A stretch of 64,000 nucleotides of DNA from Escherichia coli (lineage in GTDB: Bacteria; Pseudomonadota; Gammaproteobacteria; Enterobacterales; Enterobacteriaceae), in assembly GCF_030384885.1 (NCBI RefSeq), contig NZ_CP128613.1; one strand, written 5' to 3'. Shown piece by piece: positions 45,553 through 47,403 of the stretch (positions within the stretch are counted from its first letter, which is position 1; every line of letters starts with the position of its first letter). A program made the position numbers and the translations under genes. The notes under the pieces are model-generated. The model saw only the letters and a program-made list of their open reading frames with translations. It was not told where the DNA came from and did no database searches.

Positions 45553-47403
45553 ATGAAAATGACTTTGCCGTTTAAACCCCATGTGCTGGCGCTAATTTGC
45601 AGTGCCGGGCTTTGTTCCGCCTCTGCCGGGCTATATATAAAAAGCCGCACAGTGGAAGCGCCTGTGGAAGCGCAATCGACACAACTGGCTGCGCCTGACA
45701 TCACCGCAGTTACGCTTCCTGCAACGGTTTCCGCACCGCCCGTAACGCCCGCCGTCGTTAAAACCGCATTCAGCACTGCGCAAATAGATCAATGGGTTGC
45801 ACCTGTCGCGCTGTACCCCGACTCTTTGCTTTCACAAGTGTTAATGGCATCAACCTATCCGGCAAACGTTGCGCAAGCAGTGCAATGGTCGCACGATAAT
45901 CCACTTAAACAAGGCGATGCTGCTATTCAGGCGGTATCTGACCAGCCGTGGGACGCCAGCGTCAAATCACTGGTAGCCTTTCCACAGTTGATGGCGTTGA
46001 TGGGCGAAAACCCGCAATGGGTGCAAAACCTGGGCGATGCTTTTCTGGCGCAGCCGCAGGACGTGATGGACTCGGTACAGCGGTTGCGGCAACTGGCGCA
46101 ACAAACCGGCTCGCTGAAGTCATCAACCGAACAGAAAGTTATTACCACAACGAAGAAAGCTATACCGGTAAAACAGACAGTCACGGCTCCCGTCATACCA
46201 CCCAATACCGTTACAACTGCCAACCCTGTCATTACAGAGCCTGCAACAACCGTCATTTCCATTGAGCCCGCCAATCCTGATGTGGTCTATATTCCCAACT
46301 ACAACCCAACCGTGGTTTACGGGAACTGGGCCAATACTGCGTATCCGCCGGTTTATCTGCCACCACCAGCCGGAGAACCGTTTGTTGACAGCTTTGTGCG
46401 CGGATTCGGCTATAGCATGGGCGTTGCTACCACGTACGCACTATTCAGCAGCATCGACTGGGACGATGACGATCATGACCATCATCATGACGATGATGAT
46501 TATCACCACCACGATGGCGGTCATCGTGACGGTAATGGCTGGCAACACAACGGCGACAACATCAATATCGACGTCAACAATTTCAACCGTATCACCGGTG
46601 AGCATCTTACTGATAAGAACATGGCATGGCGGCACAATCCAAACTACCGTAATGGTGTGCCCTATCATGATCAGGATATGGCAAAGCGGTTTCACCAAAC
46701 CGATGTCAACGGCGGCATGAGCGCCACGCAGTTACCTGCTCCAACACGCGACAGCCAGCGTCAGGCGGCAGCAAGTCAGTTTCAGCAACGAACACACGCC
46801 ACACCCGTCATTACGCGAGATACCCAACGTCAGGCAGCGGCACAGCGGTTTAATGAAGCTGAACACTATGGGAGCTATGACGACTTCCGCGACTTCAGCC
46901 GTCGCCAACCACTGACCCAGCAACAAAAGGACGCCGCTCGTCAGCGTTATCAGTCGGCCTCTCCTGAGCAGCGCCAGGCAGTCCGCGAGAGAATGCAGAC
47001 TAACCCGCAGAACCAGCAGAGAAAAGAAGCGGCACGTGAGCGTATTCAGTCAGCCTCGCCTGAGCAGCGCCAGGCGTTGCGCGAGAAAATGCAAAACCGC
47101 CCAATAACACAGCAGCAAAGGGAAGCAGCGCGTCAGCGTATTCAGTCTGCAACTCCCGAACAACGCCAGGTATTTAGGGAAAAAGTACAGCAGCGCCCAC
47201 AGAACCAACAGCAACGTGATAACGCCCGCCAGCGTGTTCAATCAGCATCACCTGAACAACGTCAGGTTTTTCGGGAGAAAGTTCAGGAGAGTCGCCCACA
47301 ACGTCTAAACGACAGTAACCGTACTGCCAGGCTGAATAACGAGCAACGGTCAGCAGTACGCGAACGGCTGTCTGAGCGTGGAGCAAGAAGACTGGAAAGG
47401 TAA
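45553..47403 (+). CDS. yacH: Uncharacterised protein YacH (signal peptide, His/Asp-rich tract, Gln/Arg-rich C-terminal repeats)
   Basis: 616 aa; synteny between acnB and lpd; internal ~20 aa repeats RQRxQSASPEQRQxxREKxQ. Confidence 0.85.
   Translation: MKMTLPFKPHVLALICSAGLCSASAGLYIKSRTVEAPVEAQSTQLAAPDITAVTLPATVSAPPVTPAVVKTAFSTAQIDQWVAPVALYPDSLLSQVLMASTYPANVAQAVQWSHDNPLKQGDAAIQAVSDQPWDASVKSLVAFPQLMALMGENPQWVQNLGDAFLAQPQDVMDSVQRLRQLAQQTGSLKSSTEQKVITTTKKAIPVKQTVTAPVIPPNTVTTANPVITEPATTVISIEPANPDVVYIPNYNPTVVYGNWANTAYPPVYLPPPAGEPFVDSFVRGFGYSMGVATTYALFSSIDWDDDDHDHHHDDDDYHHHDGGHRDGNGWQHNGDNINIDVNNFNRITGEHLTDKNMAWRHNPNYRNGVPYHDQDMAKRFHQTDVNGGMSATQLPAPTRDSQRQAAASQFQQRTHATPVITRDTQRQAAAQRFNEAEHYGSYDDFRDFSRRQPLTQQQKDAARQRYQSASPEQRQAVRERMQTNPQNQQRKEAARERIQSASPEQRQALREKMQNRPITQQQREAARQRIQSATPEQRQVFREKVQQRPQNQQQRDNARQRVQSASPEQRQVFREKVQESRPQRLNDSNRTARLNNEQRSAVRERLSERGARRLER

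Follow-up and report, generated by a model that had tools for sequence, protein, structure and literature searches.

A histidine- and aspartate-rich tract and a polymorphic 32-residue tandem repeat in the DUF3300 protein YacH of Escherichia coli

Flexible histidine-rich tracts that bind metals are known from the periplasmic His/Asp/Glu loop of ZnuA, a loop of RcnA and the tails of HypB and SlyD, and tandem short helices starting with [LMS][TS]PE[EQ][RK] are found in proteins of the DUF3106, LTXXQ and Metal_resist families (CpxP/Spy/ZraP type), among which cpxP and spy are under Cpx control. Here, we analyse yacH, a gene at positions 45553–47403 (plus strand) of a 64,000-nucleotide stretch of Escherichia coli contig NZ_CP128613.1 (assembly GCF_030384885.1), hereafter the window, whose product carries an acidic, histidine-rich tract and a tail of tandem helical units. 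The gene is already catalogued, as a member of the y-ome and of the DUF3300 family, and its low-complexity modules are ordinary in kind; we know of no DUF3300 or DUF2950 member with a known function. A DUF3300 gene followed by a DUF2950 gene has been reported for rhizobia, with universal co-localization of the pair (PMC4653623). In E. coli, yacH is a near-universal gene without a function: a search of 5,426 complete genomes found a match in 5,416. Its tract and repeats can now be put as testable statements.

Results

An Enterobacteriaceae-specific insertion rich in histidine and aspartate

The yacH coding sequence encodes 616 amino acids (aa) plus a stop codon and was delimited from the list of open reading frames (ORFs), Pfam and identity to annotated yacH. 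Its product matches Pfam PF11737 (DUF3300) at 263.9 bits, against a cut-off of 25, with aa 75–332 aligned to model positions 2–227 of 227, and the DNA is 100% identical to the RefSeq-annotated yacH of E. coli 2013C-4282 and ~94% identical to that of most other E. coli. Both results bear out the name YacH given in a first-pass annotation made from the sequence alone. An NCBIfam scan of the protein returned no family beyond DUF3300.

The tract, DDDDHDHHHDDDDYHHHDGGHRDG, was delimited by composition, disorder and conservation to aa 304–327 (46462..46533, plus strand); it had first been placed at 46459–46540, which starts one codon early, at W303. Asp (11) and His (8) make up 19 of its 24 residues and the net charge of aa 303–330 is −10, a composition that makes its initial description as metal-binding or acidic reasonable. 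In an AlphaFold2 model built with 34 orthologues, the tract has a predicted local distance difference test score (pLDDT) of 31–42 and no secondary structure. Like the tracts of ZnuA, RcnA, HypB and SlyD, it is disordered, combines His with acidic residues and sits within one loop of a large protein, and it may likewise bind metal; it differs from them in being unusually rich in Asp (11 Asp to 8 His) and in having no sequence homology to them.

Every Enterobacteriaceae orthologue examined has the tract, at the same position and with 6–24 His and Asp residues. In a beta-proteobacterial homologue, as in 90 of its relatives, the corresponding loop is only 8 aa long (GVNWGRGS) and contains no more than two His or Asp. 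The tract is therefore an Enterobacteriaceae-specific loop insertion, of ~20–28 residues, flanked by a glycine-zipper-like segment on one side and an Asn-rich motif on the other. A set of 120 E. coli cluster representatives contains 15 variants in tract length or sequence, 16–21 aa long and all in frame. The underlying DNA has several 8-base-pair (bp) direct repeats and a 21-bp period, and slippage in this run of GAY and CAY codons probably changes the length of the tract. The ratio of non-synonymous to synonymous substitution rates (dN/dS; Nei–Gojobori, against four Escherichia alleles) is 0.05–0.07, and the tract appears to be under purifying selection that keeps its composition and leaves its exact length free. 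In Salmonella Typhimurium UK-1, 14028s, SL1344 and D23580, yacH is frameshifted by an 8-bp deletion at codon 284 (PMC3391293, PMC10048834), which by comparison with S. arizonae maps inside the tract.

Tandem 32-residue units in the tail

The tail of YacH, to which the tract and the repeats both belong, is long, of low complexity and basic (net charge ~+21), and its end is tandemly repetitive, as the first-pass annotation had noticed, although the period is 32 aa (96 bp) and not the ~20 residues reported there. Tandem Repeats Finder detects a 96-bp period across 46917–47286 (scores 269 and 220), and BLOSUM62 autocorrelation of aa 454–616 against shuffles peaks at an offset of 32 with a score of 335 (shuffle maximum 55 ± 11; z = 25.9), so the repeats hold up statistically. 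The ~20-residue motif corresponds to a conserved core within every 32-aa unit. A weaker sub-period of 15–17 aa is also present, because the two helices within a unit resemble each other.

Four units of 32, 32, 32 and 33 aa (46912–47298) are resolved, with pairs identical at 20–23 of 32 residues and a register that is arbitrary by 1–2 residues. All lie on the plus strand: unit 1 at aa 454–485 (46912..47007), unit 2 at aa 486–517 (47008..47103), unit 3 at aa 518–549 (47104..47199) and unit 4 at aa 550–582 (47200..47298). Each is supported by Tandem Repeats Finder and autocorrelation, units 2–4 also by AlphaFold2, and unit 1 by helices at 456–468 and 471–483 with a break between S-A-S and P. The remainder, aa 583–616 (NNEQRSAVRERLSERGARRLER; 47299..47400, plus strand), comprises a degenerate fifth remnant, placed by a weak match to the consensus, and a basic C-terminal end whose pattern, LN.EQR.A.RE...R, is conserved across Enterobacteriaceae. 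The remnant keeps only NNEQRSAVRERL and scores 36 against the consensus (shuffles 23.7 ± 4.6; p = 0.018); of the five or more repeats originally counted, four are thus clear and the fifth is borne out only at this level.

In the predicted layout, a unit starts with polar helix A and passes through a Ser-Pro-Glu-Gln cap into polar helix B, PEQRQVFREKVQ. The AlphaFold2 helices, which are of moderate confidence throughout the repeat region (pLDDT 57–74), break exactly before P-E-Q (456–468/471–483 and 485–499/503–514), and the cap would begin helix B in each unit. Modelled alone, the tail reaches a pLDDT of 68.6 and a predicted template modelling score (pTM) of 0.27: its helices are plausible, and a confident tertiary fold is absent. 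The residues A10, Q15 and P19-E20-Q21-R22 do not vary among 74 distinct units taken from alleles of Escherichia, and the hydrophobic moments of the two helices are low (0.12 and 0.30). We read the units as polar helices rather than as a packed repeat domain.

A second, shorter repeat missed by the first-pass annotation lies upstream, where two 23-aa units of the form TRD[ST]QRQAAA... occupy aa 398–438 (46744..46866, plus strand); the pair scores 63 against 19.6 ± 3.9 for shuffles, and both units are predicted to be helical.

Copy number differs among E. coli lineages

Comparison of seven aligned alleles and database proteins revealed three, four or five copies of the 32-aa unit, giving proteins of 585, 616–617 and 648 aa, respectively. 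In a systematic sample of 60 of the 5,416 genomes, 32 had four copies, 27 had three and one was of another kind. Copy number separates major lineages: three copies are found in O25b:H4-ST131, avian pathogenic E. coli (APEC) O18 and Nissle-type strains (a Nissle derivative), and four in K-12-derived strains, B and O157:H7. Changes in copy number are multiples of 96 bp. Alignment with three-copy alleles (L002–L006) leaves a 32-residue gap across units 1–2, and in the five-copy allele three adjacent units are identical; the four 96-bp units may have arisen by recent unequal recombination within Escherichia. The 23-aa region varies as well, one of its units being precisely deleted in E. coli 504237 (L003, 562 aa) and a 45-aa duplication spanning it in a 662-aa protein (P0009). 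Two disrupted copies were also seen: in FDAARGOS_944 (L007:1501-3050) a truncated yacH stands beside a transposase fragment and ipaH, and in E. coli E69 (L013:2501-5083) a ~730-bp insertion cuts the ORF to 392 aa.

A genome scan for yacH relatives yielded 39 loci. Across genera, YacH is 45–57% identical, compared with 89–95% for AcnB and 96–98% for LpdA, indicating much faster evolution (L014–L046). Genera other than Escherichia have 0–2 motifs of the 32-aa type, the exception being an independent 19-aa expansion in UBA5654, and the 32-aa amplification is specific to Escherichia. The UBA5654 unit, TPEQRQARRENVQQRVS, is present in three copies; two other enterics (L042, L022) have three copies of a 17-aa unit, NPTAQQQQRR..AK, and a beta-proteobacterial protein (P0168) has five copies of a 12-aa unit, DRSAAQNRAQNV. 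Distinct lineages have amplified distinct pieces of the tail independently. The tail itself is basic family-wide, with a median net charge of +21 and RD..R..RAQ-type motifs in the 90 beta-proteobacterial homologues, many of which finish in GGGGGRAGGGGRGR runs. Helix A of the E. coli unit (RRDAARQRIQ) copies the RD..RQRAQ motif found in tails throughout the family. Beta-proteobacterial DUF3300 proteins resemble YacH in their putative N-terminal signal, helical core, glycine-rich hydrophobic segment, Asn-rich motif and this basic tail; only the YacH side has the His/Asp insertion. Escherichia has lost a conserved tail segment, ALSGNDSRSPSWQAQ..., which is replaced in part by the amplified 32-aa units; ALSGNDSRSPSWQ is likewise a tail segment lost in Escherichia.

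Relatives of the repeat module

We searched aa 439–616 against 1.84 billion representative proteins using phmmer, which returned only 28 proteins. The strong matches were yacH fragments, and the weak ones (E 1e-5 to 1e-4) were small proteins that carry [LM][TS]PE[EQ][RK] repeats and a signal-like N-terminus and score above the Pfam cut-offs of DUF3106 or LTXXQ. Aligned by hhalign to one such protein (P0138; DUF3106, 32.7 bits), the YacH tail gave a probability of 95.6% and E = 1.1e-8 over 67 columns. YacH has in common with DUF3106, LTXXQ and Metal_resist proteins the tandem short helices with their characteristic start, but its period is 32 aa rather than ~18–20, its units are far more polar and rich in Gln and Arg, and they form the tail of a large protein instead of a small stand-alone one. 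A response to Cpx is a further point that yacH has in common with cpxP and spy.

Two further proteins have comparable sequences. In P0128, also among the phmmer matches, an OmpA domain is preceded by eight 35-aa units (LTPEQRQEIREGG..., with LTPEQRQ), which separate it from an N-terminal hydrophobic segment in a spacer arrangement. E. coli FtsN carries LTPEQRQLLEQMQ and QTPEQRQQTLQRQRQ, with TPEQRQ occurring twice, in its Gln-rich region, which is a periplasmic linker. Homology to FtsN was considered and rejected (BLASTP E = 3.2), the TPEQRQ motif alone being in common. Unlike FtsN and P0128, YacH has no SPOR or OmpA domain after its repeats, and so nothing obvious for a spacer to position. 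The repeat architecture had been called unusual for a periplasmic protein, a view we do not share, as polar helices capped by [ST]PEQ[RK] recur in DUF3106/LTXXQ-type proteins, in the P0128 linker and twice in FtsN. By analogy, we conclude that the YacH units could work like the capped-helix repeats of these envelope proteins; membership in those families is not demonstrable.

Architecture, topology and possible function

YacH begins with a predicted signal peptide or signal anchor (aa 1–25; 45553..45627, plus strand; MKMTLPFKPH followed by VLALICSAGLCSASAG), supported by hydropathy and conservation in orthologues. The segment at aa 11–29 is the only 19-residue window in the protein with a Kyte–Doolittle value above 1.6 (peak 1.90); preceded by Lys residues and conserved in orthologues, it is clearly signal-like. 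A helical DUF3300 core follows at aa 75–184 (45775..46104, plus strand), predicted to be folded from AlphaFold2 helices with a pLDDT of 68–78, and it has most of the invariant alignment columns and a dN/dS of 0.02–0.03. A glycine-zipper-like hydrophobic segment, FVRGFGYSMGVATTYALFSSID, lies at aa 281–302 (46393..46458, plus strand), with invariant G284, G290, T294 and A296 and with W303 next to it; given as GFGYSMGVATTYALFSSI (46393-46458), this segment directly 5' of the tract is the most conserved part of YacH. On the other side of the tract is the Asn-rich motif NGDNINIDVNNFNRI...WRHNPNYRNGVPY (aa 331–372; 46543..46668, plus strand), which has low pLDDT and is conserved to beta-proteobacteria, where it takes the form VNINVNRYNNINVN...WNHNP..RGN.AYR. 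The Pro/Thr/Val linkers of the protein are modelled with low confidence.

The account that we favour, tentatively and in the knowledge that it may well be wrong, is that YacH combines an export signal, a helical DUF3300 domain and a basic tail in the periplasm, with the tract as a cation site and the repeats as a helical spacer or binding tail. The composition, disorder and conservation of the tract suggest a flexible, pH-titratable site for divalent cations of the Zn/Ni/Cu type. The repeats would then form a flexible chain of short polar helices, serving as a length-adjustable basic spacer or binding tail and not as a globular or catalytic domain. The secreted or periplasmic location named in the first-pass annotation is an assumption, the N-terminal hydrophobic segment alone being clearly signal-like.

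Several observations weigh against this account. The tertiary confidence of the YacH models is low (pTM 0.27–0.29), and comparison of the full and tail models with solved structures found nothing similar. The repeat region scores 13.1 bits (E = 0.14) against DUF3106 (PF11304), for which the gathering score is 24.3, it has no match to LTXXQ (PF07813) or Metal_resist (PF13801) at E ≤ 10, and a scan of full-length YacH gave no DUF3106 match; the likeness to TPEQ-repeat proteins could be convergent low complexity. The dN/dS of the 32-aa repeats, 0.14–0.17 compared with 0.2–0.6 and above for the Pro/Thr/Val linkers (Nei–Gojobori, four Escherichia alleles), is drawn from few substitutions and uncertain unit orthology. 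Finally, the tail is strongly basic, with a family median of +21, as the positive-inside rule would predict for a cytoplasmic location, and the hydrophobic segment conserved ahead of the tract may span the membrane.

The topology of all that follows the glycine-zipper-like segment depends on whether this segment crosses the membrane; it may be a transmembrane helix, though a weak one, or else an oligomerization or packing helix. We regard as unlikely, though worth keeping in view, an arrangement in which aa 284–301 spans the inner membrane after signal cleavage, the tract is juxtamembrane on the cytoplasmic face and the Arg/Gln-rich repeats bind anionic lipids or nucleic acids in the cytoplasm. 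Such an arrangement would suit the net charge of the tail (~+21 in E. coli and a median of +21 in the 90 beta-proteobacterial homologues, many with Gly/Arg-rich ends), as well as the conservation of the segment, the best in the protein, its flanking residues R283 and D302/W303, and the hydropathy of its equivalent in these distant homologues (1.15–1.66). In E. coli, however, the mean hydropathy calculated for aa 281–302 is only ~0.9, a third of the residues are polar and no 19-residue window around aa 284–301 exceeds 1.0; hydropathy thus gives no support to a second transmembrane helix in E. coli, although the values of the distant homologues keep it among the less likely alternatives. The flank right after the segment is extremely acidic, the repeats find their nearest sequence matches in proteins with signal peptides and in a linker before an OmpA domain, and the operon partner of yacH in other genera has been described as bearing a signal peptide (PMC4653623).

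Nor do we think it probable that the modules are functionless filler, tolerated in a fast-evolving and dispensable protein, with replication slippage and unequal crossing-over as the processes that produce and resize it. Polymorphism does exist in both copy number and tract length, lineages have amplified differing sub-units (32, 19, 17 and 12 aa), the protein diverges far faster than AcnB and LpdA across genera, and the gene is disrupted in some E. coli and a pseudogene in several S. Typhimurium strains (PMC3391293). Against this, dN/dS in the tract (0.05–0.07) and the repeats (0.14–0.17) is well below that of linkers in the same protein, which suggests constraint on the amino-acid sequence of both modules. 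No Enterobacteriaceae genus sampled lacks the tract, the 74 distinct units share six invariant positions, every E. coli length variant is in frame and the gene is matched in 5,416 of 5,426 genomes. If the modules were without effect, YacH would be one more fast-evolving low-complexity envelope protein.

Published expression data place yacH in envelope-stress settings of several kinds. One study lists it with the genes experimentally classed as CpxR-regulated (3.87-fold in its table), finds less yacH transcription under protamine and cecropin A, and reports better protamine survival of a yacH deletion mutant (PMC9600279). Transcription is also down in a rob mutant (PMC7537768) and slightly up with a cathelicidin (PMC6737244). 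Our own search for CpxR boxes (GTAAA-N5-GTAAA, at most two mismatches) found 65 in the window, where 56 are expected, and the one such site upstream of yacH, at 45484–45498, is uninformative given these numbers.

The protamine phenotype bears on a further and rather improbable explanation, in which the modules act electrostatically: the acidic, His-titratable patch would fold on the basic repeats as a pH or cation switch, or would bind polycationic peptides. Binding of polycationic peptides by the tract would account for the better protamine survival of cells that lack yacH, and the lowered transcription with protamine and cecropin A (PMC9600279) and the presence of a −10 patch adjoining a ~+21 tail in one chain agree with the idea. 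The phenotype comes from a single screen, however, and beta-proteobacterial homologues have the basic tail without the acidic tract, so the tail needs none. A contingency locus that switches yacH on and off by frameshift in the tract DNA was suggested by its short direct repeats and by the 8-bp deletion of S. Typhimurium lineages (PMC3391293, PMC10048834) and was rejected as very improbable, since whole codons account for the differences among all 15 E. coli variants, changes in the 32-aa repeats are multiples of 96 bp, the repeat units of the tract DNA are imperfect triplets and not a homopolymer or a 2-, 4- or 5-nucleotide tract, and the Salmonella deletion is a fixed lineage marker rather than a reversible switch.

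Loss of the DUF2950 partner in Escherichia

Outside Escherichia, yacH has a companion. A DUF2950 (PF11453) gene lies directly 3' of it on the same strand in 33 of 33 non-Escherichia loci (for example, L020:4155-4952 and L045:3937-4839), and it is absent from the window (47404–47472) and from all 13 Escherichia loci. Citrobacter DUF2950 DNA had no match in the 5,426 E. coli genomes, and no DUF2950 remnant was detectable in the yacH–lpdA gaps of Escherichia. Since the partner is kept elsewhere and absent here, Escherichia yacH is an orphan of a conserved two-gene module. These findings suggest that YacH normally works with a DUF2950 partner lost in Escherichia.

A conjecture that links these threads, and to which we give a poor chance of being right, is that DUF2950 was lost and the tail then rebuilt by amplification of the 96-bp unit, so that the polymorphism of three, four or five copies would tune an envelope property (cationic-peptide susceptibility or metal handling) with the His/Asp tract as a metal or pH sensor. 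If the modules do affect tolerance to cationic peptides or metals, the copy-number polymorphism would provide a simple natural allelic series.

Between yacH/DUF2950 and lpdA, several relatives (for example, L012:4298-5050 and L020:5009-5296) have a ~95-aa ORF on the opposite strand with a signal-like N-terminus (MMKRLLTTTLLAATLVSGMACAAD...). Pfam returned nothing for this ORF, and in the window there is no gap that could hold it.

Locus and minor features

In the window, yacH is flanked by two minus-strand genes, acnB, which ends at 45351, and lpdA, which runs from 47473. The order acnB–yacH–lpdA is conserved, with acnB and/or lpdA beside yacH in 37 of the 39 related loci and both in 25. Compared with the window, typical E. 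coli are ~96% identical in acnB, ~94% in yacH and ~98.5% in lpdA. The idea that yacH is hypervariable was dropped, acnB of the window also being only ~96% identical: the ~94% identity of yacH arises because the whole window comes from a divergent lineage and is not specific to this gene. Positions 42601–48960 represent this divergent E. coli lineage, with 100% identity only to strain 2013C-4282.

A hairpin with an A-tract, a GCGGC stem and a T-tract (AAAAAAGCGGC-GTGGTTA-GCCGCTTTTTT) was recognized by inspection of the sequence at 47415..47443, where yacH and lpdA converge, and is probably a bidirectional terminator. It was not listed by a terminator pattern scan, and an Rfam scan of 45200–47600 gave no RNA element, only a single sub-threshold, weak terminator-like match near the hairpin. 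ORFs that overlap yacH on the opposite strand or out of frame were taken as by-products of its repetitive, biased sequence. At the other end of the gene, 45553–45561 contains two in-frame ATG codons (M1 and M3). Orthologues outside Escherichia start at the second (MTLPFKPH), and the true start of yacH may be at this codon, position 45559.

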